Shown one piece after another: positions 2,965 to 39,772 of a stretch of 39,822 nt of DNA. The DNA is taken from UHGV virus genome UHGV-0171730; one strand, given 5' to 3'. Origin of the DNA: a virus. Each line of letters opens with the position of its first letter. Within the stretch, counting starts at the first letter, position 1. The notes beneath the pieces are model-generated. The model was not told where the DNA came from. It made no database searches and saw nothing but the letters and a program-made list of their open reading frames with translations. The translations under genes were made by a program, and so were the position numbers.

Positions 2965-2982
2965 CTATTCATATCCTCATAG

Positions 2983-4142: not shown

Positions 4143-4158
4143 TTAGCAAATGAATTTA

Positions 4159-4431: not shown

Positions 4432-4529
4432 GGATTCCTCCCGAATAAACTTTGGCGATGCAATCTCGAAGCTCCTCCTGAGACGGTTGCTTCGGCATTG
4501 CATCCCACAGCTTATGTGGTTGGGTGATC

Positions 4530-4574: not shown

Positions 4575-4599
4575 CTGCCAGTCTGTTCCATTTGGCTTC

Positions 4600-4700
4600 C
4601 AGCGTCCTGCTGACGGTTAAATAGTACGATATGTACTTTACAAGATCAATACAATTTGTTGTAAGTTGGCGTGGTTTTTTATAACGCTTTGTATTTAATA
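4600..4700 (-). promoter_or_regulatory. pL/oL region with operator-like palindrome
   Basis: AGTACGATATGTACT at 4623-4637 resembles AGTACATATTGTATT at oR (6941-6955); candidate TTGATC-17-TACTAT promoter on minus strand. Confidence 0.4.
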
Positions 4701-4835
4701 GTGTTGTTTTTTAGCGTGGATGTATTGCCTCGGCGATGTAAGGAGAGATCAGAATTGCGTGGTTTAGTGGGTTGCATCTATTTATTTTTCAATAAATATA
4801 ATTGGTTATGTGTTTTTAGGTGGGCGAACGTGAGG

Positions 4836-4862
4836 CAAAGAAAACCCGGCGCTGAGGCCGGG
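4836..4862 (-). terminator. rho-independent terminator ending the cI operon (timm-like)
   Basis: Hairpin CCCGGC-GCTGAG-GCCGGG at 4845-4862 followed on the minus strand by UUUUCUUUG, just after the stop at 4868. Confidence 0.5.
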
Positions 4863-4867
4863 TTGTA

Positions 4868-5620: not shown

Positions 5621-6174
5621 ATTCCAAACCCCATTTGCCCCGACTCATCTTCAAGCGGTAAAGGTATTCTCCCAGAGTAAGTTATGTTCAGATGTTTACA
5701 GAAGTAATTCCAATACCCTACCAGGTCATCTGGGTTTATGTCATCTTCGATTGGAAACGCTATTCTATCACTATAGTATCCAGCTTCTTCATAGTATACA
5801 TGGTAGTGAGCACCGTAAATGATATCTTGGTACTTCGGATGATCGACCTTGTAACTATTCGTGTGTTTGTCAAAGTGATAGGTATCTACCGCGAAAACCC
5901 TCTTGTTATGATAGAAAGCAATAATATTTATTTTAGGGTAAGAAATCGGGTCATCAGGTTCTGAATCCTGATCTGGTTTCCATTTCAGTTCAAACTTTAG
6001 CCCTTGTATAGGTATACAATCCTCATCCAAGGGGATGATATGGGCTTGTAGCCACATATCAGAGCGACTTGGTTTCTGTTTCCATTTAACGCCAGAAAAG
6101 TTAACTATTTTTTTACAATAAAGTACTTTATCAACTTCTACTTGGCTTGGCTGATAATCATCTATTTTTGCCAA
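5617..6174 (-). CDS. hypothetical protein, 185 aa, first gene after cI (rexA slot); apparent TTG start
   Basis: ORF begins at TTG (6172-6174) immediately after an in-frame TAA; next in-frame ATG is codon 40; Tyr/His-rich segment YHFDKHTNSYKVDHPKYQDIIYGAHYHVYYEE; AT-rich. Confidence 0.5.
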   Translation of the reverse strand: MAKIDDYQPSQVEVDKVLYCKKIVNFSGVKWKQKPSRSDMWLQAHIIPLDEDCIPIQGLKFELKWKPDQDSEPDDPISYPKINIIAFYHNKRVFAVDTYHFDKHTNSYKVDHPKYQDIIYGAHYHVYYEEAGYYSDRIAFPIEDDINPDDLVGYWNYFCKHLNITYSGRIPLPLEDESGQMGFGI

Positions 6175-6984: not shown

Positions 6985-7200
6985 ATGAGCAACCTACGAA
7001 AATATCGAGAGTCACTGAATATCTCTCAAACAACACTTGCTAAGGCAGTTGGATGCACACAGGGAGCTATCGGACATTGGGAATCTGGTCGTCGCTTCCC
7101 AGACCTTAAAACATGCCGTGCTCTTGTTGCGTGCCTAAACAAGTTAGGCGCAAAAGTCAGTCTTGATGACGTGTTCCCGCCGGAACACAAAGCCGCTTAA
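6985..7200 (+). CDS. cro: Cro-like HTH repressor (71 aa)
   Basis: HTH ISQTTLAKAVGCTQGAIGHWESG; divergent from cI; ATG 6985 after GGAGG. Confidence 0.75.
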   Translation: MSNLRKYRESLNISQTTLAKAVGCTQGAIGHWESGRRFPDLKTCRALVACLNKLGAKVSLDDVFPPEHKAA

Positions 7201-7210
7201 TAAGCGGATC

Positions 7211-7256
7211 CGCTCTTTGTAACAACGGACATTCGTCCTACGTCGCTGAAAAGCGA
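7211..7256 (+). promoter_or_regulatory. nutR (boxA CGCTCTTTGTAACAACG plus hairpins)
   Basis: CGCTCTTT at 7211-7218, AACAACG, hairpin GGAC-ATTC-GTCC, boxB-like UCGCU-GAAA-AGCGA at 7243-7256; mirrors nutL. Confidence 0.5.
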
Positions 7257-7341
7257 GTTCCAAGATATCTGACCAACTAAGGCCATATGCGTTTCCACGC
7301 ATACCTTTCAACTAACTATTCACTATTGGAAATCTTAAGAA

Positions 7342-7638
7342 ATGGAAAGAACAAGTTACAGCAAACTATCACAGCGTGACGTTGATCGCGCAGAAACAGA
7401 TTTACTTATCAATCTGTCAGCTATTACCCAGCGCGGTCTGGCAAAGATGATTGGCTGTCATGAATCGAAGATAAGCAGAACGGACTGGAGATTTATTGCT
7501 TCGGTCTTGTGTGCTTTCGGAATGGCATCAGACATCAGTCCGATTAGCAGGGCTTTTAAGTATGCGCTTGATGGACTCACCAATAAAAAACGCCCGGCGG
7601 CAACCGAGCGTTCTGAACAAATCCAGATGGAATTCTGA
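7342..7638 (+). CDS. cII: CII transcriptional activator
   Basis: C-terminus LTNKKRPAATERSEQIQMEF matches lambda CII as remembered; N-terminal DNA-binding part differs. Confidence 0.85.
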   Translation: MERTSYSKLSQRDVDRAETDLLINLSAITQRGLAKMIGCHESKISRTDWRFIASVLCAFGMASDISPISRAFKYALDGLTNKKRPAATERSEQIQMEF

Positions 7639-7661
7639 GGTCATTACTGGATCAATCCACA
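7585..7661 (-). ncRNA. oop: OOP-like antisense RNA (approximate extent)
   Basis: Minus-strand terminator (stem CGCUCGG/CCGGGCG plus U6) at 7585-7612 in the cII 3' end, as for lambda tO; 5' end inferred from the lambda 77-nt OOP length. Confidence 0.4.
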
Positions 7662-7670
7662 GGAGTCATT

Positions 7671-8570
7671 ATGACAAATACAGCAAAAATACTCAACTTC
7701 TGCAGAGGTAACTTTGCCAAACAGGAGCGTAATGTGGCAGATCTCGATGATGGTTACGCCAGACTATCAAATATGCTGCTTGAGGCTTATTCAGGCGCAG
7801 ATCTGACCAAGCGACAGTTTAAAGTGCTGCTTGCCATTCTGCGTAAAACCTATGGATGGAATAAACCAATGGACAGAATCACCGATTCTCAACTTAGCGA
7901 GATTACAAAGTTACCCGTCAAACGGTGCAATGAAGCCAAGTTAGAACTCGTCAGAATGAATATTATCAAGCAGCAAGGCGGCATGTTTGGACCAAATAAA
8001 AACATCTCAGAATGGTGTATCCCTCAAAACGAGGGAAAATCCCCTAAAACGAGGGATAAAACATCCCTCAAATTGGGGGATTGCTATCCCTCAAAACAGG
8101 GGGACACAAAAGACACTATTACAAAAGAAAAAAGAAAAGATTATTCGTCAGAGAATTCTGGCGAATCCTCTGACCAGCCAGAAAACGACCTTTCTGTGGT
8201 GAAACCGGATGCTGCAATTCAGAGCGGCAGCAAGTGGGGGACAGCAGAAGACCTGACCGCCGCAGAATGGATGTTTGACATGGTGAAGACCATCGCGCCA
8301 TCAGCCAGAAAACCGAATTTTGCAGGGTGGGCTAACGATATCCGCCTGATGCGTGAACGTGACGGACGTAACCATCGCGACATGTGTGTACTGTTCCGCT
8401 GGGCATGCCAGGACAACTTCTGGTCCGGTAACGTGCTGAGCCCGGCCAAACTCCGCGACAAGTGGACCCAGCTCGAAATCAACCGTAACAAGCAACAGGC
8501 AGGTGTGACAGCCTGCAAACCAAAACTCGACCTGACAAACACTGACTGGATTTACGGGGTGGATTTATGA
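7671..8570 (+). CDS. O: replication initiator O
   Basis: Near-identical to lambda O as remembered (MTNTAKILNF...WIYGVDL); contains ori iterons. Confidence 0.95.
   Translation: MTNTAKILNFCRGNFAKQERNVADLDDGYARLSNMLLEAYSGADLTKRQFKVLLAILRKTYGWNKPMDRITDSQLSEITKLPVKRCNEAKLELVRMNIIKQQGGMFGPNKNISEWCIPQNEGKSPKTRDKTSLKLGDCYPSKQGDTKDTITKEKRKDYSSENSGESSDQPENDLSVVKPDAAIQSGSKWGTAEDLTAAEWMFDMVKTIAPSARKPNFAGWANDIRLMRERDGRNHRDMCVLFRWACQDNFWSGNVLSPAKLRDKWTQLEINRNKQQAGVTACKPKLDLTNTDWIYGVDL
8019..8150 (+). repeat. ori-lambda: four ~18-bp iterons plus AT-rich region
   Basis: ATCCCTCAAAACGAGGGA (8019-8036), ATCCCCTAAAACGAGGGA (8039-8056), ATCCCTCAAATTGGGGGA (8063-8080), ATCCCTCAAAACAGGGGGA (8086-8104), then A-rich tract. 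Confidence 0.85.
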
Positions 8571-9268
8571 AAAACATCGCCGCACAGATGGTTAATTTTG
8601 ACCGTGAGCAGATGCGTCGGATCGCCAACAACATGCCGGAACAGTACGACGAAAAGCCGCAGGTACAGCAGGTAGCGCAGATCATCAACGGTGTGTTCAG
8701 CCAGTTACTGGCAACTTTCCCGGCGAGTCTGGCTAACCGTGACCAGAACGAACTGAACGAAATCCGCCGCCAGTGGGTTCTGGCTTTCCGGGAAAACGGG
8801 ATCACCACAATGGAACAGGTTAACGCAGGAATGCGCGTAGCCCGTCGGCAGAATCGACCATTTCTGCCATCACCCGGGCAGTTTGTTGCATGGTGCCGGG
8901 AAGAAGCATCCGTTATCGCCGGACTGCCAAACGTCAGCGAGCTGGTTGATATGGTTTACGAGTATTGCCGGAAGCGAGGCCTGTATCCGGATGCAGAGTC
9001 TTATCCGTGGAAATCGAACGCGCACTACTGGCTGGTTACCAACCTGTACCAGAACATGCGGGCCAATGCGCTGACTGACGCGGAATTACGACGCAAGGCT
9101 GCCGATGAACTGACCTGTATGACAGCGCGAATTAACCGTGGTGAGACGATACCTGAACCAGTAAAACAACTTCCTGTCATGGGCGGCAGACCTCTAAATC
9201 GTGTTCAGGCGCTGGCGAAGATCGCAGAAATTAAAGCTAAGTTAGGACTGAAAGGAGCAAGTGTATGA
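8567..9268 (+). CDS. P: replication protein P (DnaB helicase loader)
   Basis: Near-identical to lambda P as remembered; ATGA overlap with O stop. Confidence 0.95.
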   Translation: MKNIAAQMVNFDREQMRRIANNMPEQYDEKPQVQQVAQIINGVFSQLLATFPASLANRDQNELNEIRRQWVLAFRENGITTMEQVNAGMRVARRQNRPFLPSPGQFVAWCREEASVIAGLPNVSELVDMVYEYCRKRGLYPDAESYPWKSNAHYWLVTNLYQNMRANALTDAELRRKAADELTCMTARINRGETIPEPVKQLPVMGGRPLNRVQALAKIAEIKAKLGLKGASV

Positions 9269-9555
9269 CGGGCAAAGAGGCAATTATTCATTACCTGGGG
9301 ACGCATAATAGCTTCTGTGCGCCGGACGTTGCCGCGCTAACAGGCGCAACAGTAACCAGCATAAATCAGGCCGCGGCTAAAATGGCACGGGCAGGTCTTC
9401 TGGTTATCGAAGGTAAGGTCTGGCGAACGGTGTATTACCGGTTTGCTACCAAGGAAGAACGGGAAGGAAAGATGAGCACGAACCTGATTTTTAAGGAGTG
9501 TCGCCAGAGTGCCACGATGAAACGGATATTGGCGGTATATGGAGTTAAAAGATGA
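9265..9555 (+). CDS. ren: Ren-like protein (96 aa)
   Basis: Size and position after P match lambda ren; ATGA overlap with P stop. Confidence 0.7.
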   Translation: MTGKEAIIHYLGTHNSFCAPDVAALTGATVTSINQAAAKMARAGLLVIEGKVWRTVYYRFATKEEREGKMSTNLIFKECRQSATMKRILAVYGVKR

Positions 9556-9580
9556 CCATCTACATCACTGAGCTAATAAC

Positions 9581-9612
9581 AGGCCTGCAGGTAATCGCAG
9601 GCCTTTTTATTT
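9581..9612 (+). terminator. rho-independent terminator (tR2-like)
   Basis: Stem AGGCCTGC / GCAGGCCT with 8-nt loop at 9581-9604 followed by TTTTTATTT. Confidence 0.5.
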
Positions 9613-9628
9613 GGGGGAGAGGGAAGTC

Positions 9629-10069
9629 ATGAAAAAACTAACCTTTGAAATTCGATCTCCGGCACATCAGCAAAACGCTATTCACGCAGTACAGCAAATC
9701 CTTCCAGACCCAACCAAACCAATCGTAGTAACCATTCAGGAACGCAACCGCAGCTTAGACCAAAACAGGAAGCTATGGGCCTGCTTAGGTGACGTCTCTC
9801 GTCAGGTTGAATGGCATGGTCGCTGGCTGGATGCAGAAAGCTGGAAGTGTGTGTTTACCGCAGCATTAAAGCAGCAGGATGTTGTTCCTAACCTTGCCGG
9901 GAATGGCTTTGTGGTAATAGGCCAGTCAACCAGCAGGATGCGTGTAAGCGAATTTGCGGAGCTATTAGAGCTTATACAGGCATTCGGTACAGAGCGTGGC
10001 GTTAAGTGGTCAGACGAAGCGCGACTGGCTCTCGAATGGAAAGCGCGATGGGGAGATCGGGCTGCATGA
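9629..10069 (+). CDS. ninB: NinB (Orf-family recombination mediator)
   Basis: 146-aa product from ATG 9629 after GGAGAGGGAAG; position after ren; ORF-track start 9611 rejected. Confidence 0.75.
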   Translation: MKKLTFEIRSPAHQQNAIHAVQQILPDPTKPIVVTIQERNRSLDQNRKLWACLGDVSRQVEWHGRWLDAESWKCVFTAALKQQDVVPNLAGNGFVVIGQSTSRMRVSEFAELLELIQAFGTERGVKWSDEARLALEWKARWGDRAA

Positions 10070-10593
10070 CTATCAAATCAAATACGCCAGCACACGACAA
10101 GGACTGCTGGCAAACGCCGCTTTGGCTTTTTGATGCACTGGATATTGAGTTTGGATTCTGGCTGGATTCGGCAGCGAGCGACAAAAATGCTCTGTGCGCT
10201 CACTGGCTAACTGAGGACGACGACGCGCTCAATTCTGAGTGGGTAAGCCACGGTGCAATCTGGAATAACCCACCGTACAGCAATATCAGGCCGTGGGTGG
10301 AAAAAGCCGCTGAGCAGTGTATACAACAGCGACAGACGGTAGTGATGCTTGTGCCAGAGGATATGTCTGTCGGATGGTTCAGCAAGGCTCTGGAGAGTGT
10401 TGACGAAGTTCGCATCATCACTGATGGACGGATTAATTTTATCGAACCATCGACGGGGCTGGAGAAGAAGGGAAACAGCAAAGGTTCCATACTGCTGATT
10501 TGGCGACCGTTCATCAGTCCCCGGCGAATGTTTACTACCGTATCCAAAGCGGCATTGATGGCGATCGGGCAGGGCGTCAGGAGGGCGGAATGA
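10066..10593 (+). CDS. phage Dam-like N6-adenine DNA methyltransferase
   Basis: Motif IWNNPPYS (DPPY/NPPY class); ATGA overlap with ninB stop; ORF-track start 10006 rejected. Confidence 0.7.
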
Positions 10594-15991: not shown

Positions 15992-16519
15992 ATGGCACTC
16001 ACCGACAAACAAGAAATGTTCTGTCGCGAGTACCTCATCGATTTAAATGCCACGCAAGCGGCTATTCGGGCGGGGTACAGCGCAAAGACAGCTAACCGTA
16101 CCGCATCCGAAAACCTGTCAAAACCTGATATCAAGTTAAGAATCTCCGAACTGAAAGCGCAACGCAATGATCTTGTTGGTATTAATGCAGAATATGTACT
16201 TAATCGCCTTATTGAAATCGACCAGATGGATGTGCTCGACATTCTCCTGCAAAACGGCGAGTTAAAGCCAATTAAAGACTGGCCTAAGGTATGGCGCACA
16301 ACGCTATCAGGAATGGATGTCGTGGAGATGGTATCCGCAGATAGCGCCGCACTTCTGAAGAAAATCAAATGGCCTGATAAGGTTAAAAACCTCGAACTTC
16401 TTGGTAAGCATGTTTCTGTTCAGGCGTTTAAAGAACAAGCTTCTCACGAATTAACAGGCAAAGACGGCGGCGCAATCCAGATTGAAACATCACCGATGAG
16501 CACTCTATTCGGAAAATGA
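15992..16519 (+). CDS. terminase small subunit
   Basis: N-terminal MALTDKQEMFCREYL...NATQAAIRAGYS typical of TerS; immediately upstream of TerL with ATGA overlap. Confidence 0.8.
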   Translation: MALTDKQEMFCREYLIDLNATQAAIRAGYSAKTANRTASENLSKPDIKLRISELKAQRNDLVGINAEYVLNRLIEIDQMDVLDILLQNGELKPIKDWPKVWRTTLSGMDVVEMVSADSAALLKKIKWPDKVKNLELLGKHVSVQAFKEQASHELTGKDGGAIQIETSPMSTLFGK

Positions 16520-17931
16520 CCTCGATTAATCCTATCTTTGAACCGTTCATTGAGGCGCATCGCTACAAAGTCGCCAAAGGCGGTCGAGGTAGCGGTAAGT
16601 CATGGGCAATTGCGAGGCTGCTTGTTGAAGCGGCGCGTCGGCAGCCAGTGCGTATTCTTTGCGCTCGTGAACTGCAAAACAGTATCAGCGATTCGGTAAT
16701 CCGGTTGCTTGAAGACACCATAGAGCGGGAAGGGTATTCGGCTGAGTTTGAAATTCAGCGTTCAATGATTCGTCATCTCGGAACGAATGCTGAATTCATG
16801 TTCTACGGCATAAAAAACAACCCGACGAAGATTAAATCGCTCGAAGGCATTGATATCTGCTGGGTGGAAGAAGCGGAAGCGGTAACGAAGGAGTCATGGG
16901 ATATCCTGATACCAACCATCCGTAAGCCGTTTTCCGAAATATGGGTGAGCTTTAACCCGAAGAACATCCTCGACGATACCTATCAGCGATTCGTCGTAAA
17001 TCCTCCTGATGATATTTGTCTGCTGACGGTGAACTACACCGACAACCCGCACTTTCCTGAAGTTCTCCGTCTGGAGATGGAAGAGTGTAAACGCAGAAAT
17101 CCGACACTGTATCGTCACATCTGGCTTGGTGAGCCAGTAAGCGCAAGTGATATGGCAATCATCAAACGTGAATGGCTTGAAGCCGCAACCGATGCGCACA
17201 AGAAACTCGGATGGAAAGCGAAAGGCGCGGTTGTCTCTGCGCATGACCCGTCAGATACAGGGCCAGATGCTAAAGGTTACGCATCGCGTCACGGTTCGGT
17301 GGTTAAGCGCATTGCCGAAGGCCTGCTGATGGACATCAACGAGGGTGCTGACTGGGCTACTTCGCTGGCGATTGAAGACGGCGCTGACCACTACCTGTGG
17401 GATGGCGATGGTGTCGGTGCCGGGCTACGCAGACAGACAACGGAAGCGTTCTCCGGCAAGAAAATCACCGCCACGATGTTCAAGGGCAGCGAATCGCCAT
17501 TCGATGAAGATGCTCCGTATCAGGCCGGAGCATGGGCTGATGAAGTCGTACAGGGCGACAACGTTCGCACTATTGGCGATGTATTCCGCAATAAGCGAGC
17601 GCAATTCTATTACGCGCTGGCTGACAGGCTGTATCTGACATATCGGGCGGTTGTCCACGGTGAGTATGCAGACCCCGACGACATGCTGAGTTTCGACAAA
17701 GAAGTGATAGGCGAGAAGATGCTGGAGAAGCTGTTTGCAGAACTGACGCAGATTCAGCGCAAATTCAATAATAACGGGAAGCTGGAGCTTATGACTAAGG
17801 TCGAAATGAAGCAGAAGCTCGGTATTCCATCTCCTAACCTGGCTGATGCACTGATGATGTGTATGCATTGCCCGGAGTCGGCTGCGCAACCCGACTATTC
17901 CAGTTACTCAATTCCTTGTGGTGTAGGTTGA
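16516..17931 (+). CDS. terminase large subunit
   Basis: Walker A KGGRGSGKS; 471 aa; between TerS and portal. Confidence 0.9.
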   Translation: MTSINPIFEPFIEAHRYKVAKGGRGSGKSWAIARLLVEAARRQPVRILCARELQNSISDSVIRLLEDTIEREGYSAEFEIQRSMIRHLGTNAEFMFYGIKNNPTKIKSLEGIDICWVEEAEAVTKESWDILIPTIRKPFSEIWVSFNPKNILDDTYQRFVVNPPDDICLLTVNYTDNPHFPEVLRLEMEECKRRNPTLYRHIWLGEPVSASDMAIIKREWLEAATDAHKKLGWKAKGAVVSAHDPSDTGPDAKGYASRHGSVVKRIAEGLLMDINEGADWATSLAIEDGADHYLWDGDGVGAGLRRQTTEAFSGKKITATMFKGSESPFDEDAPYQAGAWADEVVQGDNVRTIGDVFRNKRAQFYYALADRLYLTYRAVVHGEYADPDDMLSFDKEVIGEKMLEKLFAELTQIQRKFNNNGKLELMTKVEMKQKLGIPSPNLADALMMCMHCPESAAQPDYSSYSIPCGVG

Positions 17932-17932
17932 T

Positions 17933-20131
17933 ATGGCAGAAAAAAAGATGACTGACTGGCATCGCAAGGTGCTGTGCAACTTTGATAATGCCTGGTCAGC
18001 AACGCAGGATATGCGTGAGCAGATTATTGAGGCTCAACGTTTCGTCCGGGTGTCCGGCGCACAGTGGGAAGGCAGCACAAACGCTGGTTACTCATTTGAT
18101 GAAGGCAGGTTTGAGCATTACCCGCGCTTTGAACTGAATAAGATTGCCCGTGAATGTGATCGCATCATTGGCGAGTATCGACAGAATCGCATCAGCGTTA
18201 AATTCAGGCCGAAGGACGATAAGGCATCGGAAGCGTTAGCCGAAAAGATGAACGGAAAATTCCGCGCTGACTATCAGGAAACATCCGGTGGCGAAGCGTG
18301 TGATAACGCATTTGATGATGCTGTAACGGGCGGATTCGGTTGTTTCCGCATGTGTGCCGATTACGAAGATGAAATGGATCCGAGTAACGAGCAACGCCGT
18401 ATAAGCCTTCTCCCGGTTTACGACCCAGCGACATGCGTCTTCTTCGATCAGGACAGCAAGCAATATGACCGCTCTGATGCTATGTGGGCTATGGAAATGT
18501 TCTCCATGACGCCTAAAGCGTTCGAGGCTGAATACCCTGATTCCATCGCGGCAAGTCTTTCTCGTGATGACACTGGCACTCAATATGACTGGTCAACTCC
18601 TGATGCTATCTATGTTGGTCGCTACTACGAAGTTCGCATAGAGAAGGTGAAGCTCACAGCATGGCGTAACCCTGTTAGCGGAGAAACGGCAATCTATGAT
18701 GAAGAGCAAATCAAAGATATTGTTGACGAGCTGACCGATGGCGCATTCGAACTGATTGGCGAGCGGACAGTGAAGAAACGCCGCGTTTATTGCGGCCTTC
18801 TGTCTGGCGCTGAATGGCTGGAAGAACCGAAGCGTATTCCGGGCGAACATATTCCTCTCATCCCGGTATATGGGCGTCGTTCATTTGTTGATAATCAGGA
18901 GCGAATCGAAGGCCACGCAGCAAAAGCGATGGATGCACAGCGTCTTGAGAACCTGATGGTTTCCATGATTGCAGATAACGCCACTCAGGCTGGCGGCGAT
19001 GGCATTCCTGTAGTTGATGTTGACATGATTCCTGGCCCTCTCGCCACTCATTGGGCGGAGCGCAACAAAAAGCGCCCGGCGTTCCTGCCGATGGTCAGTC
19101 TGAAAAACAAAAATGGAGATATTACTGCGCAGGCTCAGGTCAGCAGTTATACACCTCCAACACAAATGCCTCCTGCTCTTGCCGGGCTATTACAGTACAC
19201 CGGAACGGCTATTCAGCAAATTACAGGTGCGTCGCAGCTTGAGAACATGCCGAGCAACGTCGCCACCGATACCGTTGATAGCATCTTTAACCGGATGGAC
19301 ACGCAGTCCTATATCTACATGGACAACATGGCTAAATCCATGCGTCGCGCTGGCGTTGTGTGGCTTTCTATGGCGCGTGAGGTCTATGGAAGTGATACGC
19401 CGATGCGTATCGTTAATGAGGACGGCAGCGATGACGTGGCGCTGATGACTGGTGAAGTGGTTGACCGTCAGACAGGGCAGGTTATCGCTCTTAACGACCT
19501 TTCGCAGGGTAACTATGAAGTGACTGTCGATGTTGGTCAGTCGTTTGCTACTCGCCGTGATGCAACGGTTAAGTCGTTACTTTCCATGCTGGCACTTATC
19601 CCACCAGGAACGCAGAAGCACGACCTTGTATCGTCGATGATTCTCGACAATATGGACGGCGAAGGGATGGACGACCTTAAAGAATACAACCGCAATCAGT
19701 TGCTTCTGTCTGGCGTTATCAAGCCGAGAACGCCTGAAGAACAGCAGATGGTTGAACAAGCGAAACAACAACAGGCCAGTCAGCCAGATCCGGCTATGGT
19801 TGCTGCGCAAGGTCAGCTTCTTGCTGGTCAGGCTGAATTGCAGAAAGCGCAGAACGAACAAGCAGCCATTCAGGTTAAAGCATTCCAGGCACAGACGGAT
19901 GCTCAGGTTGCTGCGGCAAATGTTGTGAAAATCCTCGCATCTGCCGATAGCCAGCAAAAATCTGATATCCGTGAGGCGCTGAAACTGCTCGGACAGTTCC
20001 AGCAACAGCAAGGAGACAATGCCCGTGCTGATGCAGAGCTTGTCCTGAAAAGTCAGGCACAGGGCCATGCACAACGAATGGACATCAGCAGCATCCTGCA
20101 AAAATCAACCCAGCAACAACCACAGCAGTAA
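17933..20131 (+). CDS. portal protein (P22 gp1-like, 732 aa)
   Basis: Size and position after TerL; Q-rich C-terminal tail. Confidence 0.85.
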   Translation: MAEKKMTDWHRKVLCNFDNAWSATQDMREQIIEAQRFVRVSGAQWEGSTNAGYSFDEGRFEHYPRFELNKIARECDRIIGEYRQNRISVKFRPKDDKASEALAEKMNGKFRADYQETSGGEACDNAFDDAVTGGFGCFRMCADYEDEMDPSNEQRRISLLPVYDPATCVFFDQDSKQYDRSDAMWAMEMFSMTPKAFEAEYPDSIAASLSRDDTGTQYDWSTPDAIYVGRYYEVRIEKVKLTAWRNPVSGETAIYDEEQIKDIVDELTDGAFELIGERTVKKRRVYCGLLSGAEWLEEPKRIPGEHIPLIPVYGRRSFVDNQERIEGHAAKAMDAQRLENLMVSMIADNATQAGGDGIPVVDVDMIPGPLATHWAERNKKRPAFLPMVSLKNKNGDITAQAQVSSYTPPTQMPPALAGLLQYTGTAIQQITGASQLENMPSNVATDTVDSIFNRMDTQSYIYMDNMAKSMRRAGVVWLSMAREVYGSDTPMRIVNEDGSDDVALMTGEVVDRQTGQVIALNDLSQGNYEVTVDVGQSFATRRDATVKSLLSMLALIPPGTQKHDLVSSMILDNMDGEGMDDLKEYNRNQLLLSGVIKPRTPEEQQMVEQAKQQQASQPDPAMVAAQGQLLAGQAELQKAQNEQAAIQVKAFQAQTDAQVAAANVVKILASADSQQKSDIREALKLLGQFQQQQGDNARADAELVLKSQAQGHAQRMDISSILQKSTQQQPQQ

Positions 20132-20221
20132 TTAACCAATAACGTGCAATGGCTGTCTTTATGAGGCCTGGCACCCTATTGCCTTCCGATGGGCTGAACA
20201 TCGAGTAAACAGGGGTAACAA

Positions 20222-21118
20222 ATGGACCAGATGGCAGAAAACACACCAGAAGTTGAAATCGAAACCGACGCGTCAGAGCAGATTCCTGATGATGTCGAAC
20301 TGGCTGAAGAAGTCGAAACAGAAGATGGCAGTGAGTCCTCCGGCAATGATGCAGAGGAAGCTACTGAAACTGATGACGACGAATCAGAACAGGAATTCTA
20401 CTTTGGTGACGAAAAGCTGGATTCGCCAACCAGCGAAGATGGCGCTGAGCATGGACTGGTAAAACACCTGCGCAAGACGATTAAAGAGAAAGACCGCGAG
20501 CTGAAAGAGCTGATGCGTCAGTCCCAGAAACCCGTCGAGCAGCAGCCGGTAATCACTCAACCACCGCGAATGCCAAAACTGGATGATGAGGACATCGGTT
20601 TTGATGAAGAAATCTACCAGCAACGCATGGCTAAGTGGGCAGAGGATAACGGCAAATACCAGGAGCAAGTACGAGAGCGGAAACGAGAGGAAGAGGCGCG
20701 TACCGCAACGCTTCAGCAGAAAGCAGCCAATTACATGCATAGAGTAAAAGCACTGAAAGTGGCTGGTTACCAGGATGCAGAGCAGGCTGTACGCGAAGAT
20801 GTTCCTGTTCACATTCAGGACATGATCCTTCTTGAGTCAGAGAAGCCGGAAATCGTTGTTCTGGCACTCGGTCGCAACACTGAACTGCGCAAGCAACTGG
20901 CAGAAGCTACCAACCCCGTAGCAATTGGTCGTCTGCTGGAACGTATCGAATCGAAGGCCAGAATCATGCCAAAAGCAAAAACCACGGCAGCCACAACCCC
21001 GACAGTTAAGGGGAGCAACGGCGCAGTAATCAATAACCTCGACAAACTTCTCGAAAAAGCGCGCGACACCGGTGATTACACCGAATACCGGGCGGCGAAG
21101 AACAAAGCTAAAAAATAA
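20222..21118 (+). CDS. scaffolding protein (298 aa)
   Basis: Very acidic N-terminus, helical/charged body; between portal and coat. Confidence 0.65.
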   Translation: MDQMAENTPEVEIETDASEQIPDDVELAEEVETEDGSESSGNDAEEATETDDDESEQEFYFGDEKLDSPTSEDGAEHGLVKHLRKTIKEKDRELKELMRQSQKPVEQQPVITQPPRMPKLDDEDIGFDEEIYQQRMAKWAEDNGKYQEQVRERKREEEARTATLQQKAANYMHRVKALKVAGYQDAEQAVREDVPVHIQDMILLESEKPEIVVLALGRNTELRKQLAEATNPVAIGRLLERIESKARIMPKAKTTAATTPTVKGSNGAVINNLDKLLEKARDTGDYTEYRAAKNKAKK

Positions 21119-21138
21119 TCCATCGGAGCTAAATACCT

Positions 21139-22398
21139 ATGTCTAACCAGTTAACAAAAGACCTCGAAATCCTCTTTGAGAGCGTCATTGATAGTTTTGA
21201 GGCGTCCAATGTCGTTTCCCGCGAGTGCAGCAAGTTCCGACCGGGCGACATTGAAATGCAGCGCGCTGGCGACGTTGTTTATCGCCCTCAGGGCTACCAC
21301 CTGAAAACCGTGAGCGGACTTGATCTGACTTCGGCCACTGCAAACTCACTCGTTCAGCGTCAGGTGCCTGCTCGCTTCCGCGAGCCAGAGAACGTCATCT
21401 ACGAACTGGACGCAAAAGAAATGCGCGATCCGTGGCACAAAGAGCAGGCTGGCAAGGCGGCGGGTCGCCAGTTGGCGGCGTGGGTTGATAACATGATCGT
21501 CGATGAGGTGGTCGCTCGCTCCACCAACGTGGTCACCATTAAATCGGCGTCCACCGGTAGCACTCTCGGCGAAGAACTCTGGAACGCATCGGCTGACGTT
21601 GATGCAATGATGCTGTCCATTGGTGTGCCTCAGGGTGGTCAGCGCAAGGCGTTCTACAACCCGTTCAACTACAAAGACCTGGCTAAGGAGCTTGGCTCTC
21701 GCGCATATGCGGTCGGTGCAACTCTGACAGCCTATGAGAAAGCTCAGATTCCACCTGTGGCATCCTTCGACAGTTTCCGCGTTGATTATGCTGGCGCAAT
21801 GAAGGCTGGTTCAGCTACCGCTGTAACTCTCGGCGGCGCAGTAAAACACAAAGTTACCGCGATGGATTCCAACGGCGCGCCTACCGATAACCGCCAGGGT
21901 GACATCACCGTATCCACTGCTGGCGTACTGGCTGTCGGCGATGCATTCACTATCGCAGGCGTTAACAGTGTCCACATGATCAAGAAGGTGGATACAGGTA
22001 AGCCGCAGGTATTCCGCGTCCTGGCAGTAAATGGCACTACCGTTACCATCAGCCCGAAAATTCTGCCACCAGACAACGCGGATAAGGCGTCTATTCCTTA
22101 CCAGAACGTTACCGCCAATCCGGTGGCAAACGCGGCGATCACCATCCTCAACAAGAAGGCTGCGGCTTCCAACATCTTCTTCGCTGAGGGTTCTGTTGAG
22201 CTGATGTATGGCAAGTTGGCATTCCCTACCGGCCAGGGTCCGCAGGTTATGACCGCAAGGACCGAGCAGGGTGCGACCATCATCATGGCTTACCAGTTCG
22301 ACGCTAAATCTGGCAAAACGTGGACTCGCTTCACCACGCTGGCTGGCGCAAGCGTACTGGTCCCGGAATTCACCGGCCTGGTACTGGCTAACCAGTAA
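21139..22398 (+). CDS. major capsid (coat) protein (419 aa)
   Basis: Position after scaffold, GGAG RBS, strong terminator immediately downstream. Confidence 0.8.
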   Translation: MSNQLTKDLEILFESVIDSFEASNVVSRECSKFRPGDIEMQRAGDVVYRPQGYHLKTVSGLDLTSATANSLVQRQVPARFREPENVIYELDAKEMRDPWHKEQAGKAAGRQLAAWVDNMIVDEVVARSTNVVTIKSASTGSTLGEELWNASADVDAMMLSIGVPQGGQRKAFYNPFNYKDLAKELGSRAYAVGATLTAYEKAQIPPVASFDSFRVDYAGAMKAGSATAVTLGGAVKHKVTAMDSNGAPTDNRQGDITVSTAGVLAVGDAFTIAGVNSVHMIKKVDTGKPQVFRVLAVNGTTVTISPKILPPDNADKASIPYQNVTANPVANAAITILNKKAAASNIFFAEGSVELMYGKLAFPTGQGPQVMTARTEQGATIIMAYQFDAKSGKTWTRFTTLAGASVLVPEFTGLVLANQ

Positions 22399-30490: not shown

Positions 30491-30895
30491 TTAGTCATCC
30501 ATGGATGGATTGAGCTTATCTCGTGTTGATGTGGCAATTTTCCCAACATTTTTCAACCAAGATTTTAAGAAGGATATGTCGTCCTTAATATCATGAATAT
30601 CCTCATTCTTTATACGATCAACCTTATCCTCTAAGCTCTCTATAGAACGCTCAATGCTAGACAGAGAGATTTTTAAGTCCCCTTGCTCACGTTCCAGTGA
30701 GGATTTGAGAGCACAATATTCGTTTTCTAGAATTCCTATTTTTTTTGTTAGAGAGTGCATTCGATACTCATACACCAAACCAGAAACGACTAATGCAGCC
30801 AACAGAAACCATTCAAGCACACCAACCTCCTTAGTTTTGCGCAGGATACCAGATGATAATGTGTAGTTGGAGTAGCGCGGTTGTAATGCAAGCAT
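30491..30895 (-). CDS. hypothetical membrane-anchored coiled-coil protein (134 aa)
   Basis: One hydrophobic segment WFLLAALVVSGLV then heptad-like repeats; AT-rich; weak RBS. Confidence 0.4.
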   Translation of the reverse strand: MLALQPRYSNYTLSSGILRKTKEVGVLEWFLLAALVVSGLVYEYRMHSLTKKIGILENEYCALKSSLEREQGDLKISLSSIERSIESLEDKVDRIKNEDIHDIKDDISFLKSWLKNVGKIATSTRDKLNPSMDD

Positions 30896-30979
30896 TTTGT
30901 TTTGGTTTTATGCTTGCTTGTATGTGTGTACAGTGCATATAATGCAAGCATACATCACAACAAAGGTGCTTGCATTATG
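30885..30979. promoter_or_regulatory. divergent control region with four alternating 11-bp sites and a sigma70-like promoter
   Basis: AATGCAAGCAT at 30885-30895 and 30941-30951; reverse orientation ATGCTTGCTTG at 30910-30920 and TGCTTGCATT at 30967-30976; TTGCTT (30914-30919), 18-bp spacer, TATAAT (30938-30943). Confidence 0.4.
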
Positions 30980-31969
30980 ACTGAAAAGAAAAGTGGCGAA
31001 GGGAAAGCTAAGGGCGGTATCGCTCGCGCAAAGTCGCTGACTAAAGAGCAGCGTTCTGAAATAGCAAAGAAAGCAGCGGCTGCAAGATGGAAGGATAAAC
31101 CATTAATTGCTACGCATAAGGGATCGTTCCAGCATGAATTCGGGATTGATGTTGAGTGCTATGTGTTAAATGATGATAACAAAACTGCCGTTATTAGCCA
31201 GAGAGGCATGGGAGAAGCGATTGGTCTTGGCGAAGGTGGCAGCAGGTTGCCAAAGTTTATTCAGGGGAAAACTATTTCTCAGTATATCGGGCATGAATTA
31301 AGGGCAAAACTTGAAAATCCTCTTATTTTTCAATACAAACAGGCGGGCACGAACACTCCAGCTAATCCTGTAATACATGGCTACGATGTAACAATATTAA
31401 TTGATTTATGTCGAGCAATCTCTAATGCTAAAGCTGAAGGTAAGTTGCTTTCCAGTCAGGAAGGGATTGCTAAGCAAGCCAGAATCATTATTGATGCATC
31501 AGCCAAGGCGGGCATTCAGGGGCTTGTTTATGCTTTGGCAGGGTATGACAGAACAAAAGAAGAGGTAATTCAAGCATATAAGCGATATGTTGCTGAAGAG
31601 GCTCGTGAGTATGAAAGAGAGTTCACCCCTGAACTTTATGAGCATTGGTATCGTCTGTATGGTATAGACAAACCAGTTAGAGGGCGACCATGGGCGTTTA
31701 AATATCTTACGATAGATCACATTTATTACCCATTAGCCAGAAGTGAAGGAAAGGTATTTAATTTAGCAAAAACGTCAAAAGAAGAAAAAGGCAGCAAGAA
31801 CGATAAAATACACCAGTTTTTATCAGAGGTTGGAGTTAAGGCTCTTAGAACCCAAATAGGTAAGGTTACTGGTATTGCAATGGTTTCTGATACTCGAGAA
31901 GAGTATGAGAAATACATAGATGAAAAGGTTATTGGACAAAGAACCATAGACTTAAAAGATAAAGAATAA
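30977..31969 (+). CDS. hypothetical protein (330 aa) with basic N-terminal region
   Basis: ATG 30977 downstream of consensus-like promoter; strong terminator after stop; N-terminal KAKGGIARAKSLTKEQRSEIAKKAAAARW; ORF-track start 30902 rejected. Confidence 0.5.
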   Translation: MTEKKSGEGKAKGGIARAKSLTKEQRSEIAKKAAAARWKDKPLIATHKGSFQHEFGIDVECYVLNDDNKTAVISQRGMGEAIGLGEGGSRLPKFIQGKTISQYIGHELRAKLENPLIFQYKQAGTNTPANPVIHGYDVTILIDLCRAISNAKAEGKLLSSQEGIAKQARIIIDASAKAGIQGLVYALAGYDRTKEEVIQAYKRYVAEEAREYEREFTPELYEHWYRLYGIDKPVRGRPWAFKYLTIDHIYYPLARSEGKVFNLAKTSKEEKGSKNDKIHQFLSEVGVKALRTQIGKVTGIAMVSDTREEYEKYIDEKVIGQRTIDLKDKE

Positions 31970-31998
31970 GAAAAACCCACCGTCAGGTGGGTTTTTTA
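31970..31998. terminator. bidirectional rho-independent terminator
   Basis: Hairpin ACCCACC-GTCA-GGTGGGT at 31975-31992 flanked by A5 upstream and T6 downstream. Confidence 0.6.
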
Positions 31999-32022: not shown

Positions 32023-32559
32023 TCAAACAACCCACCAGTTTGCCTGATTGGATACCAGCCTTGCAGTTTTTATGGAATTAATTATGCCATGCTCAAGAGC
32101 CTTGTTAGCATCCAAAATGGTCGAGTCTGCTATCAGGGATGCCCACCTAATATGGGTTCCGATGTCGATATTGAACGTCTCAACGAAGCGATCAAGATCG
32201 TTATCGAGGCATTTCCCGTACTCTCTCAATCTGGCATGGTCGGCGGCTGGGGAGGCAAAGCACCATAATAGAGGATGTAACAGGAATCTTGATAATGGGT
32301 TTGCGAAACGTTCTGAGCCAGCCAGGAAAACGATATTAGCTATGGATTCAACATTGCTTATGTTGTGAGTTCTAACGGTAACAGGGAGTGACTTAAGAAA
32401 GTTATACGCAGTAAAGCCAGCGGCTGTTTCCCCTCCCTGACTTGATATATGGATATTTAATTCAGTTGCGCCTTGAGATAATGCGGTGAGACAGTGGTTC
32501 TGAAGTTGCCCAACAGTGGCAGTGTTAACGGGGCATAAGAAATGAATTGTGTGCAGCAT
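32023..32559 (-). CDS. ClpP-like serine protease-fold protein (178 aa)
   Basis: ISSQGGETAAGFTAYNFL resembles ClpP INSPGGVITAGMSIYD; AGSERFANPLSRFLLHP resembles [20 protein letters not shown]; start overlaps mnt stop. Confidence 0.55.
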   Translation of the reverse strand: MLHTIHFLCPVNTATVGQLQNHCLTALSQGATELNIHISSQGGETAAGFTAYNFLKSLPVTVRTHNISNVESIANIVFLAGSERFANPLSRFLLHPLLWCFASPAADHARLREYGKCLDNDLDRFVETFNIDIGTHIRWASLIADSTILDANKALEHGIINSIKTARLVSNQANWWVV

Positions 32560-32813
32560 TATTTATCATCCTTGCCATAAATCTTTTTAAGTGTCTCAAA
32601 CACAACGGCCTTGAACTGCTCTGCTTGCTGATCAGCCAAGCGTTCAGCTTCGTCTCGATAGCCTGCAATCGGTGATGGCTTTGAGAGAGCATCCTGAACG
32701 ATTTGTAATAACTCAGAGTTCATTGACCTTCCGTTAGCCTCTGCTCTTAATTTCAATTTTTCTCTTACTTCCAAAGGCATACGGAAGTTAAAGTGCGGAT
32801 CGTTTCTAGCCAT
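32559..32813 (-). CDS. mnt: Mnt repressor (ribbon-helix-helix)
   Basis: MARNDPHFNFRMPLEVREKLKLRAEANGRSMNSELLQIVQDAL matches P22 Mnt as remembered. Confidence 0.85.
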   Translation of the reverse strand: MARNDPHFNFRMPLEVREKLKLRAEANGRSMNSELLQIVQDALSKPSPIAGYRDEAERLADQQAEQFKAVVFETLKKIYGKDDK

Positions 32814-32835: not shown

Positions 32836-32887
32836 TTGACATGATAGAAGCACTCTACTATATTCTCAATAGGTCCACGGTGGACCT
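32836..32887. promoter_or_regulatory. immI control region: Pant promoter, Arc operator, Mnt operator
   Basis: TTGACA (32836-32841), 17 bp, TATATT (32859-32864); ATGATAGAAGCACTCTACTAT at 32841-32861; perfect palindrome AGGTCCACGGTGGACCT at 32871-32887. Confidence 0.7.
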
Positions 32888-32903: not shown

Positions 32904-33062
32904 ATGAAAGGAATGAGCAAAATGCCGCAGTTCAATTTGCGGTGGCCTAAAGAAGTATTGGATTTGGTGCGTAAGGTGGCGGAAGAGAACGGGCGATCTG
33001 TTAACTCTGAGATTTACAAGCGAGTGTTGGACAGCCTGAAGAGAGAGGGGATAACGGTATGA
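32904..33062 (+). CDS. arc: Arc repressor (ribbon-helix-helix)
   Basis: MKGMSKMPQFNLRWPKEVLDLVRKVAEENGRSVNSEIYKRV matches P22 Arc as remembered; ORF-track start 32841 rejected. Confidence 0.9.
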   Translation: MKGMSKMPQFNLRWPKEVLDLVRKVAEENGRSVNSEIYKRVLDSLKREGITV

Positions 33063-33280
33063 GGTTTATTGAGGTTGATGAGATTGGCTATGAGAATGCA
33101 CTTGGTAGAGGTAAATCTTTAGTTAACATTGATGGCATTGAATCGATAAGGAGTGGTGAATTTACGGAGATCAGAATGATGTCAGGCGGAATCATTCCTT
33201 GCCGTGATTCAGTAGAGTCAATCAAATCAAAAATGAGTGGTCAGTGGCTTTATAGCTACAGTGACTTACAAAAACAGTGA
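33059..33280 (+). CDS. hypothetical protein (73 aa) between arc and ant
   Basis: ATGA overlap with arc stop; no motif recognised. Confidence 0.45.
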   Translation: MRFIEVDEIGYENALGRGKSLVNIDGIESIRSGEFTEIRMMSGGIIPCRDSVESIKSKMSGQWLYSYSDLQKQ

Positions 33281-33343
33281 AGCCCCAACTGCGGGAACAG
33301 TCAGGGCTTCGGTATCGTAAAACCACGCATAGGAATTAACGAC

Positions 33344-34267
33344 ATGACGAGTGTAGCAATTGCAGAACATACAATCAACGTTCCATTCCACGGAACAAAT
33401 CTCTTTTTGGTCAGCATTAACAATGAACCTTACGTTCCTATGAAACCCGTTGTAGAAGGCATGGGTATGGTTTGGGCTGCTCAATTTGTTAAATTAAAAC
33501 AGAGATTTGTCAAAGGTATTTCGGAAATCGAAATACCTTCTGCTGGCGGTAAACAGTTAATGATATGCCTTGCCTTTCGTAAGTTTGCGGCTTGGCTTTC
33601 AAGCATTCAGCCAAACAAAGTCCGCCCTGAAATCCGCGACAAGGTAATCCAGTATCAGGAAGAGTGTGACGATGTGCTCTACGAGTACTGGACTAAAGGC
33701 CATGTGGTTAATCCACGCAAAGCTAAAAAGGCGTTGCCGGGGAAAATCACTACTGAACAGCAGGAAGCCATTAAACAACTCGTCATGAGTCGCGGTCAGT
33801 CTCTGCCAAAAGAAAAACAGGCTAAGGCGATGATCACCATGTGGTCGTCACTGAAATCCCATTTTGGATGTTCGTACAAAGAAATCAGTGAGGAGCAGTT
33901 TACAGAAGCACTGTCACTTGCAGCTCGAGTTCCACTTGAAGGTGAGTTCATTGGCAAACAAGAAGAGTTACCAGCGCCAAAACTGGATATTAACTTCCCG
34001 ATTTCATGGTTTGCTGAAAATGCACCTTACGCCATTATCAGGCAGCAATGCGGTGATACTGTTGCTCTTGACCGCAGCGCACTCGTTGAATGCAGTCCGG
34101 CGTATAAACTAATCAATATTCTGACAAAAGCGGGGTATGACGTTTCAGCAGTAAGAGCTGAACTAAAAGCACTTCGCCATTTAATGGCTGAGCAAAGCTG
34201 GGCACTTAAAGAGATAGCTTCATTCGCAGCGATACGTGATAGAGCGTGCCACTCAATTAAACTTTAA
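33344..34267 (+). CDS. ant: antirepressor Ant (307 aa)
   Basis: Position after arc; size close to P22 Ant (300 aa). Confidence 0.7.
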   Translation: MTSVAIAEHTINVPFHGTNLFLVSINNEPYVPMKPVVEGMGMVWAAQFVKLKQRFVKGISEIEIPSAGGKQLMICLAFRKFAAWLSSIQPNKVRPEIRDKVIQYQEECDDVLYEYWTKGHVVNPRKAKKALPGKITTEQQEAIKQLVMSRGQSLPKEKQAKAMITMWSSLKSHFGCSYKEISEEQFTEALSLAARVPLEGEFIGKQEELPAPKLDINFPISWFAENAPYAIIRQQCGDTVALDRSALVECSPAYKLINILTKAGYDVSAVRAELKALRHLMAEQSWALKEIASFAAIRDRACHSIKL

Positions 34268-38641: not shown

Positions 38642-39772
38642 ATGAAACGCGCATATAAATACCGGTTTTACCCGACAACTGAGCAGGCTGAGCTTTTAGC
38701 TCAGACGTTTGGCTGTGTGCGCTTCGTCTACAATTCCATCCTTCGTTGGCGTACCGATGCGTACTACGAGCGAAAAGAAAAGATCGGTTATCTACAGGCC
38801 AACGCTCGCCTTACGGCGCTCAAAAAAGAGCCTGAATACATATGGCTGAATGATGTTTCCTGCGTTCCCCTCCAGCAGTCGTTGCGCCACCAACAAGCCG
38901 CCTTTGCTAACTTCTTTGCCGGACGAGCTGCATATCCGGCTTTCAAAAGCAAACGGCACAAACAGGTGGCTGAGTTCACTGCCAGCGCGTTTAAACACCG
39001 TGACGGCGAGTTGTATATAGCAAAGAGCAAGTCGCCGCTGGATGTTCGCTGGAGTCGAGAATTACCATCTGCGCCGTCAACCGTTACCATTTCCAGAGAT
39101 AGCGCTGGCAGGTACTTTGTTTCCTGCCTGTGTGAGTTTGAACCTGTATCAATGCCTGTTACCGCTAAAACGGTCGGCATTGATGTGGGCTTAAAAGATT
39201 TATTCGTCACCGATACCGGATTCAAAACCGACAATCCCCGCCACACCGCTAAATATGCGAAGCGATTAACGCTGCTACAGCGACGTTTAAGCAGGAAGCA
39301 AAAAGGCTCAAGAAACCGTATTAAAGCCCGCTTAAAGGTCGCCCGACTCCACGCGAAAATCGCCGATTGCCGGATGGACAATCTGCACAAGTTGTCCCGC
39401 AAACTGATTAACGAAAACCAAGTTGTTTGCGTCGAATCCCTCAAGGTGAAAAACATGATCCGCAACCCGAAGCTGTCTAAAGCAATAGCTGACGCAGGCT
39501 GGAGCGAACTTGTTCGCCAGCTCCAGTACAAAGGCAAATGGGCCGGGCGGTCAGTGGTCGCCATTGACCAGTATTTACCGTCCTCAAAATGCTGTAGTTG
39601 CTGCGGTTTCACCATGCAAAAAATGCCTCTTAATGTTCGTAAATGGCACTGCCCTGAATGCGGCGCAGACCATGATCGCGACATTAACGCGGCACGTAAT
39701 ATTAAAGCTGCCGGGCTGGCAGTGTTAGCCCACGGAGAGCCTGTAAACCCTGAATCGCAGCACGCGGCTTAG
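38642..39772 (+). CDS. tnpB: IS200/IS605-family TnpB (RuvC-like RNA-guided nuclease)
   Basis: RuvC-I GIDVGLKD, catalytic E in CVESLKVKN, Zn finger CxxC...CxxC, RuvC-III DHDRDINAARNI; no tnpA in window. Confidence 0.85.
   Translation: MKRAYKYRFYPTTEQAELLAQTFGCVRFVYNSILRWRTDAYYERKEKIGYLQANARLTALKKEPEYIWLNDVSCVPLQQSLRHQQAAFANFFAGRAAYPAFKSKRHKQVAEFTASAFKHRDGELYIAKSKSPLDVRWSRELPSAPSTVTISRDSAGRYFVSCLCEFEPVSMPVTAKTVGIDVGLKDLFVTDTGFKTDNPRHTAKYAKRLTLLQRRLSRKQKGSRNRIKARLKVARLHAKIADCRMDNLHKLSRKLINENQVVCVESLKVKNMIRNPKLSKAIADAGWSELVRQLQYKGKWAGRSVVAIDQYLPSSKCCSCCGFTMQKMPLNVRKWHCPECGADHDRDINAARNIKAAGLAVLAHGEPVNPESQHAA

Follow-up and report, generated by a model that had tools for sequence, protein, structure and literature searches.

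A predicted short ClpP isoform as putative cargo behind mnt in a P22-like Escherichia coli prophage

Why does a gene for a ClpP-like protease lie directly behind the gene for a repressor that maintains lysogeny, and what would its product do in the cell? The locus that raises this question is in UHGV virus genome UHGV-0171730, a stretch of 39,822 nt that is termed the window below; it represents a CUS-3-like, K1-specific, P22-like E. coli prophage with phage CUS-3 as its closest phage and with an endosialidase-type tailspike. On its minus strand an mnt-like open reading frame (ORF) of 84 aa is joined to one of 178 aa, and an earlier sequence-only reading of this DNA had seen ClpP-like motifs in the latter, had brought in the prohead proteases of this fold that sit in the head modules of HK97-type phages, and had leaned toward a function expressed in lysogens rather than capsid maturation. 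We propose that the 178-aa protein is, as judged from its sequence and modeled fold, a short ClpP isoform of the type represented by PpClpP1 of Pseudomonas plecoglossicida, that its gene is probably an exchangeable passenger of the position behind mnt and, more tentatively, that its product acts together with the ClpP of the host. The two genes and the ribosome-binding site of the second are as follows.

32023 to 32559, minus strand: clpP-like gene, encoding a predicted short ClpP isoform with a Ser72-His95 dyad, without N-terminal axial loops and with Ser146 at the catalytic Asp position (from sequence, profiles and model)
32559 to 32813, minus strand: mnt, encoding an 84-aa Arc/Mnt-family ribbon-helix-helix (RHH) repressor (from Pfam)
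32569 to 32573, minus strand: AAGGA, Shine-Dalgarno sequence that serves the clpP-like gene, 9 nt upstream of its ATG and still within the 3' end of mnt

The junction of the two genes reads GATGATAAATAATGCTG on the minus strand (codons GAT GAT AAA TAATG CTG), and the one-base overlap described in the sequence-only reading is exact, as the ATG of the clpP-like gene opens on the final A of the mnt TAA stop codon (TAATG). The first gene is identified as mnt by matches to Pfam Arc (3.4e-27) and to Repressor_Mnt, the C-terminal domain (3.8e-12). Between diverged copies of the second gene the ratio of nonsynonymous to synonymous substitution rates (dN/dS) is ~0.08 in every pair with unsaturated dS, and by this measure the clpP-like ORF is a real gene under strong purifying selection.

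The profile search and structure prediction that had been suggested for the 178-aa protein both place it among the ClpP peptidases. Pfam CLP_protease (PF00574, peptidase S14) matches residues 24-165 (44.4 bits, gathering cut-off 20.2, E 2.2e-11), and the best PDB sequence match by far is 9UXT_A (E 1.8e-35, full length). A monomer model made with AlphaFold2 from 25 homologues (predicted local distance difference test, pLDDT, 90.7; predicted template-modeling score, pTM, 0.87) has the ClpP alpha/beta fold with its handle helix, and in Foldseek the template-modeling (TM) score of this model is 0.90 to 9UXT and 0.74 to E. coli ClpP, with a range of 0.73-0.77 across the ClpP structures of E. coli and Listeria. 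The family is a broad one; a search for relatives gave 519 representative clusters at E<1e-10, mostly of ~180-190 aa.

Which properties of ClpP are kept and which are lost was read from an alignment of 192 relatives with mature E. coli ClpP. Ser72, which corresponds to E. coli Ser97, is present in all 192 relatives and His95, which corresponds to His122, in 191, and these are the candidate Ser and His of the sequence-only reading. The oxyanion residues Gly42-Gly43 are likewise found in 192/192 and Arg84 is invariant, and the features that the protein shares with canonical E. coli ClpP (MEROPS S14) are the fold and the equivalents of Ser97, His122, the oxyanion Gly, Arg111 and the handle-helix residues Glu141 and Arg148. 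The catalytic triad as such is not retained, as the position of Asp171 is occupied by Ser146 and varies among A, G and S across the relatives without being consistently acidic, and the neighboring Arg170 is gone as well. In addition, the first residue of the protein aligns near residue 25 of mature E. coli ClpP, and the ~24 missing N-terminal residues include the axial loops, which gate the pore and make contact with ClpX and ClpA, and most hydrophobic residues of the docking pocket are replaced: Y60/Y62/F82/I90/L114/L189, which we take to be the ClpP residues that receive the IGF/LGF loops, align with N35/H37/S57/H65/N87/K164. With a conserved Ser-His dyad but neither axial loops nor a hydrophobic pocket, the 178-aa protein should be a cytoplasmic, catalytically competent serine peptidase subunit of ClpP fold rather than a pseudo-enzyme, and it is predicted to lack the means of engaging ClpX or ClpA by itself.

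A separate feature is seen at the C-terminus, where a motif N-W-W-V (window 32023-32037), typical of the enterobacterial prophage clade, forms a beta-strand in the model. Over the whole alignment W175 is present in 85, W176 in 76 and V or I at position 177 in 142 of the relatives, and the NWWV strand might occupy the degenerate docking pocket.

The best PDB match both by sequence and by fold, 9UXT, is PpClpP1 of P. plecoglossicida (PLoS Pathog 2026, PMC12900304), a protein of 183 aa to which the 178-aa protein is 40% identical over its full length (E 8e-45). PpClpP1 is N-terminally truncated and has Ser-His-Pro instead of Ser-His-Asp (the Pro is residue 150 counted along the 9UXT chain and Pro151 in PMC12900304), it forms a homo-tetradecamer with a pore of 42.7 Å, and it is a weak peptidase with a catalytic efficiency ~13-fold below that of canonical ClpP2, an activity for which Ser and His are essential and the third residue is dispensable (PMC12900304). 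By itself PpClpP1 does not bind ClpX, and with ClpP2 it forms a stable hetero-tetradecamer in which ClpX-driven degradation is raised; it was studied as a drug target, and its inhibition suppressed bacterial growth in its species (PMC12900304). With a length of ~180 aa, an N-terminal truncation that removes the axial loops, a retained Ser and His, a non-acidic third residue and a TM score of 0.90, the 178-aa protein is by all of these features a PpClpP1-type short ClpP isoform, and its predicted loss of docking features is consistent with a PpClpP1-like failure to bind ClpX.

The two proteins also differ in several respects. The third position is Pro in PpClpP1 and Ser146 in the phage protein, the NWWV C-terminus belongs to the enterobacterial prophage clade, and the behavior of PpClpP1 is known from biochemistry whereas the phage protein is known from its sequence and a monomer model. 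Their genomic settings differ too. Orthologues of PpClpP1, all of 183 aa and 65-89% identical, are spread over Pseudomonas, Azotobacter and Stutzerimonas, and in Pseudomonas loci from two species groups (L129-L134) they lie on the chromosome outside phage regions, with KGG (general stress) and DUF6555 genes as consistent neighbors, which suggests a stress-response context, whereas the phage gene lies under a phage repressor promoter. The idea that PpClpP1 is itself prophage-borne was considered and rejected, given these chromosomal loci and a scan of viral contigs that gave only distant relatives.

How the clpP-like gene would be expressed can be judged from the immI control region upstream of mnt and from the sequence downstream of the clpP-like stop codon, which contain the following features.

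31971 to 31996, bidirectional: intrinsic terminator AAAAACCCACC-TGAC-GGTGGGTTTTT, which ends the mnt-clp unit and the convergent P63C gene (from a hairpin scan)
32841 to 32869, minus strand: Pmnt-like promoter TTGAGA-17-TATCAT (from a promoter scan and the layout of the P22 record)
32836 to 32864, plus strand: Pant-like promoter TTGACA-17-TATATT, facing Pmnt (from a promoter scan and the layout of the P22 record)
32872 to 32886, no strand assigned: Mnt operator-like palindrome GGTCCACCGTGGACC (read from the sequence, with the position of Omnt from the P22 record)
32841 to 32862, no strand assigned: Arc operator-like sequence ATAGTAGAGTGCTTCTATCAT, which overlaps both promoters (read from the sequence, with the position of Oarc from the P22 record)
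32904 to 33062, plus strand: arc, encoding the Arc repressor (from a profile, with the start from the RefSeq annotation of a 99.7% identical prophage)
33059 to 33280, plus strand: 73-aa ORF between arc and ant (PHROG 11805, E 3e-53, function unassigned there)
33276 to 33342, minus strand: sar antisense RNA (Rfam RF00262, 76.6 bits, gathering threshold 43)
33344 to 34267, plus strand: ant, encoding the antirepressor, the target of control by Mnt and Arc (from profiles and PHROG)

The unit thus runs from Pmnt through mnt and the clpP-like gene to a bidirectional terminator directly after the clpP-like stop codon, and a terminator scan between mnt and the clpP-like gene found none. Co-transcription of the clpP-like gene with mnt from Pmnt, which the sequence-only reading had assumed for this part of the immI accessory region, is therefore supported by the one-base overlap, by the lack of an intervening terminator and by the terminator that follows. 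The arrangement of Pant and Pmnt, Omnt, Oarc and the sar RNA is that of P22 and agrees with the annotated P22 record, and GGTCCACCGTGGACC and ATAGTAGAGTGCTTCTATCAT are presumably the P22 Mnt and Arc operators themselves. In lysogens of P22, Pant is repressed by Mnt that occupies Omnt and Pmnt stays active, and Arc silences both promoters after infection. With P22-type operators and promoters, expression in lysogens is the expected state of the clpP-like gene, and its protein is probably made there; the general direction of the sequence-only reading, an accessory role in the lysogen and not capsid maturation, is supported. The 73-aa ORF downstream of arc has a start codon that overlaps the stop codon of arc (ATGA), its 3' end is overlapped by the sar RNA, and P22 is without a gene at this place.

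Does the tight coupling to mnt mean that the two proteins work together, as the sequence-only reading had implied? Comparison of related prophages argues for a different interpretation. Among E. coli prophages the clpP-like gene, the terminator and the last ~35 nt of mnt, including the ribosome-binding site, are 95-100% identical, while the rest of mnt and the control region are only 25-60% identical, with at least four unrelated mnt alleles ahead of the same clp allele and with sharp identity boundaries at ~32590 and ~31977; hence a cassette boundary lies inside the 3' end of mnt. In a survey of 124 loci from genomes and viral contigs, all copies with at least 79% identity follow an Arc/Mnt-type gene and the one-base overlap is seen in 47 of 48 intact copies, the exception being L085, where the overlap between an RHH ORF and the clp start is ~35 nt. 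The whole immI-type cassette, comprising an RHH gene, the ClpP-like gene, arc and ant, is also present between tail genes L and K of the lambda-like siphophage Escherichia phage PhiR12_1 (L002, positions 4048-6060), which shows that the cassette moves between phage types. In the same survey none of the copies with 74% identity or less has an RHH gene in its locus. The occupants of the position behind mnt are equally varied: P22 has orf59a before t_mnt, followed by sieA; CUS-3 (L138, positions 7005-8580) and UTI89 (L136, positions 2400-3403) carry a further copy of mnt, then a hypothetical gene and the gene of a YafO-family toxin; and in E. coli SJC33 (L135, positions 3160-3495) a Rap1a/Tai-family gene (type VI effector immunity) overlaps mnt by 4 nt. 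By these comparisons the post-mnt position is a variable cargo slot, and coupling to Mnt is best read as a property of this slot that applies to one lineage only, so that the implied functional link to Mnt is not upheld.

Outside this lineage the gene has quite different settings. Each copy at or below 74% identity stands alone and is encoded on the opposite strand from the genes around it. These copies are located between tape-measure and baseplate-hub genes, between the small terminase and Rz/endolysin genes, or near erf, and they come from Pantoea, Erwinia, Proteus and Rahnella prophages as well as from viral contigs. Their neighbors differ and no conserved partner gene was found beside them, and most of the lone copies examined have a hairpin terminator right after the stop codon. 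Copies from different prophage contexts (L100, L106, L112, L004, L005, L105 and L008) share the short leader TCGGAATATTCTTAAGGA before the ATG (25 nt upstream), but a clear promoter was not seen with it.

The clpP-like gene therefore has the marks of a moron, as it separates genes that are neighbors in related phages, is variably present and has a terminator at 31971-31996. As regards the promoter, in the window the gene uses Pmnt, and a sigma-70 consensus was missing upstream of the two lone copies scanned (L100 and L094). On the sum of these properties it is classed here as moron-type passenger cargo. It shares with the other cargo of the slot and with other morons (P22 orf59a and sieA, the Rap1a/Tai gene and the YafO module) the position, the orientation, expression from or beside Pmnt, a terminator of its own and recombinational exchange between otherwise similar prophages, and it differs from them in its product, as their proteins are unrelated to the ClpP-like protein and none is a protease. 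The gene is carried by 128 of 5,426 complete E. coli genomes (2.4%), always on the chromosome and in up to three copies, including lineages of extraintestinal pathogenic and avian pathogenic E. coli (ExPEC/APEC) with the K1 capsule type, and in RefSeq it appears as 'ATP-dependent Clp protease proteolytic subunit' (WP_000903306.1) adjoining an 'Arc family DNA-binding protein'.

The interval of the window that separates the clpP-like gene from the gene-16-like DNA transfer gene contains two more cargo genes, of which one (30491-30895, minus strand) encodes a small membrane/coiled-coil protein at the position of P22 sieA (PHROG 5962) and the other (30902-31969, plus strand) a P63C-domain protein (PHROG 2384), the function of both being unassigned in PHROG; neither protein had a convincing match among the PADLOC models. 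Downstream of the tailspike gene there is a transposase gene (PHROG 506, 38642-39772, plus strand), and in the prophage of E. coli M15, which is 99.7% identical to the window, IS903B splits the endosialidase tailspike gene (L043, positions 9130-10098), so that the M15 copy is probably defective.

What the protein would do in the lysogen is a matter of analogy, and the reading that we tentatively favor, at somewhat less than even confidence, is that the prophage supplies an accessory ClpP isoform, which works alongside host ClpP as PpClpP1 does with ClpP2 and thereby alters the output of ClpXP and ClpAP. It would be translated from the Pmnt transcript, be made in the lysogen alongside Mnt, and be shut off together with Mnt once both promoters are under repression by Arc. 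If it resembles PpClpP1, it would form heptameric rings with a wide open pore, which alone would have little activity and would recruit no unfoldase. As a protein unable to dock an unfoldase it would have to exert its effect through the single ClpP of the host, and the phage rings would stack on, or mix with, this ClpP to give hybrid barrels that alter ClpXP and ClpAP output and so re-tune regulated proteolysis in the lysogen. Stabilized lysogeny, exclusion of other phages and stress fitness are candidate consequences, among which we make no ranking.

In its logic, and only in its logic, this scheme resembles the cI-rexA-rexB unit of lambda, where an accessory gene that is expressed in lysogens and co-transcribed with the maintenance repressor acts on host Clp proteolysis, since RexB reportedly inhibits ClpP-dependent degradation. 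RexB differs in being an unrelated membrane protein and a Clp inhibitor, whereas the product of the phage gene would be a ClpP subunit whose effect could go in either direction.

Several points weigh against partnership with host ClpP. An identity of 40% to PpClpP1 is no guarantee of equal partner behavior, and as the orthologues of PpClpP1 are chromosomal genes of stress loci, the biology of the phage gene may differ from theirs. The prophage clade has a conserved C-terminal motif of its own, NWWV, and the case for a lost docking pocket leans on the list of pocket residues assumed above. The lone copies L100 and L094, where no sigma-70 consensus promoter was found, may be regulated through something other than a standard promoter. 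Finally, a gate-less homo-oligomer that acts alone explains the sequence features equally well.

This last possibility underlies an alternative that we consider unlikely but that fares best among the rivals, namely that the protein is an autonomous anti-phage or exclusion peptidase, a gate-less, homo-oligomeric barrel that would work without an ATPase and digest those proteins of superinfecting phages that are unfolded or freshly synthesized. Such a role would suit the accessory region, which is expressed in the prophage and in which P22 has orf59a and sieA, as well as the moron-like occurrence of the gene at classical cargo sites in many prophages, and the wide pore and ClpX-independence of PpClpP1 would admit unfolded chains without ATP. 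On the other hand, PpClpP1 alone is a weak peptidase, its chromosomal orthologues in Pseudomonas are found among stress genes and not in defense islands, and no link to exclusion was found in the literature. PADLOC-DB 2.0 likewise had no match for the ClpP-like protein or Mnt at E 0.1, and it gave none for the P63C protein or the arc-ant ORF.

Somewhat less probable still is a conversion factor for host fitness, by which the lysogen would better survive stationary phase or proteotoxic stress and for which competition among phages would be irrelevant. The conservation of the PpClpP1 orthologues beside KGG and DUF6555 genes on Pseudomonas chromosomes and the growth suppression seen upon PpClpP1 inhibition speak for such a stress proteostasis function, and the two lone copies without a sigma-70 consensus would fit the use of an alternative sigma factor. 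Against this stands the arrangement in the window, where the gene is driven by the phage-controlled Pmnt and not by a stress promoter.

We think it improbable that the protein is a dedicated regulatory protease of immI that removes Ant, or Arc, in lysogens and so backs up repression by Mnt. It is true that every copy with at least 79% identity is translationally coupled to an Mnt-type gene that neighbors arc and ant, even in the lambda-like phage, and antirepressor-like genes were noticed near L005 and L085 by eye only, without profile confirmation. Most relatives (74% identity or less), however, are in regions without a nearby mnt or arc and with no ant noticed, and sister phages with the same arc and ant genes have unrelated cargo in the post-mnt slot.

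A toxin-antitoxin-like pair, in which the RHH protein Mnt would neutralize a toxic ClpP-like partner and bring about addiction or abortive infection, has very little probability and was rejected. The layout does recall type II systems, with a small, autoregulated RHH gene first and an overlap of 1 nt, and the Pfam model FitA-like_RHH also recognizes Mnt (33 bits, cut-off 27). In most lineages, though, the clpP-like gene has no RHH partner, and the occurrence of one clp allele behind at least four unrelated, interchangeable mnt alleles means that no cognate pairing is maintained; Mnt moreover retains its own C-terminal domain and a P22-type operator, and an overlap with mnt is a property of the slot, found with the unrelated Rap1a/Tai gene as well.

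There remains the capsid (prohead) maturation protease, or a remnant of one relocated from an HK97-type phage, for which PHROG 94 ('head maturation protease', E 7e-21) and the GenBank annotation of phage phiv205-1 (QGF19911.1; L001, positions 4052-4588) could be cited, and which we reject as next to impossible: the NCBIfam head-maturation model NF045542 scores 49.3 bits against a cut-off of 120; tblastn over 50,697 phage genomes at E 1e-10 gave six records only, all carrying the same clpP-like gene; the best viral structural matches have at most 26% identity compared with 38% for 9UXT; P22-type capsids mature without proteolysis; the head module of the window (16516-22398, plus strand) is complete and, as had been noted, P22-like, with large terminase, portal, scaffold and coat genes contiguous and no protease gene among them; and the clpP-like gene is ~10 kb from this module, downstream of mnt on the minus strand, under Pmnt and on the opposite strand from the late genes. 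On the same grounds the 'head maturation protease' labels of PHROG 94 and the phiv205-1 record are mis-annotations at the level of the fold. What the protein shares with phage head maturation proteases is the fold superfamily, its phage origin and a database name; it differs in scoring below the family cut-off, in lying outside the head module and in having no scaffold or capsid fusion or neighbor, and its nearest relative is a cellular short ClpP isoform, which leaves no support for the prohead-protease origin that the sequence-only reading had implied.

Literature searches (on phage-encoded ClpP, on ClpP paralogues, prophages and defense, on Mnt, P22 and immI, on morons, on exclusion and on WP_000903306) returned nothing on the phage gene, and the P22 SieA paper and the phi456 paper make no mention of a clpP-like gene. 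The short-ClpP family and its biochemistry were already known from one 2026 study, and the gene was already named a ClpP subunit in public annotation. What appears to be undescribed is that a whole enterobacterial branch of this family is prophage cargo, that E. coli P22-like phages carry a short ClpP in the Mnt transcript, and that the prophage short ClpP is distinct from prohead proteases.

Our analysis places PpClpP1, the sole characterized member, in the wider context of a broad family with a phage-borne enterobacterial branch, whose gene is common in E. coli, has relatives in many Enterobacterales prophages and is labeled in databases as a Clp subunit or, wrongly, as a 'head maturation protease'. 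A more general proposal, which is possible but rather doubtful, is that temperate phages of Enterobacterales carry a ClpP isoform as a lysogenic-conversion gene, and that hybrid barrels with one ring gate-less and blind to unfoldases reprogram the flux through ClpXP and ClpAP. These proteases control RpoS, SOS components, antitoxins and several phage proteins. If the proposal is true, the prophage would, for example, stabilize lysogeny or incapacitate rival phages that need Clp proteolysis or are sensitive to it, in what would be a previously unrecognized takeover of a central host protease from inside. A modified ClpP subunit supplied by a prophage would then be a compact lever on both host physiology and phage-phage competition.

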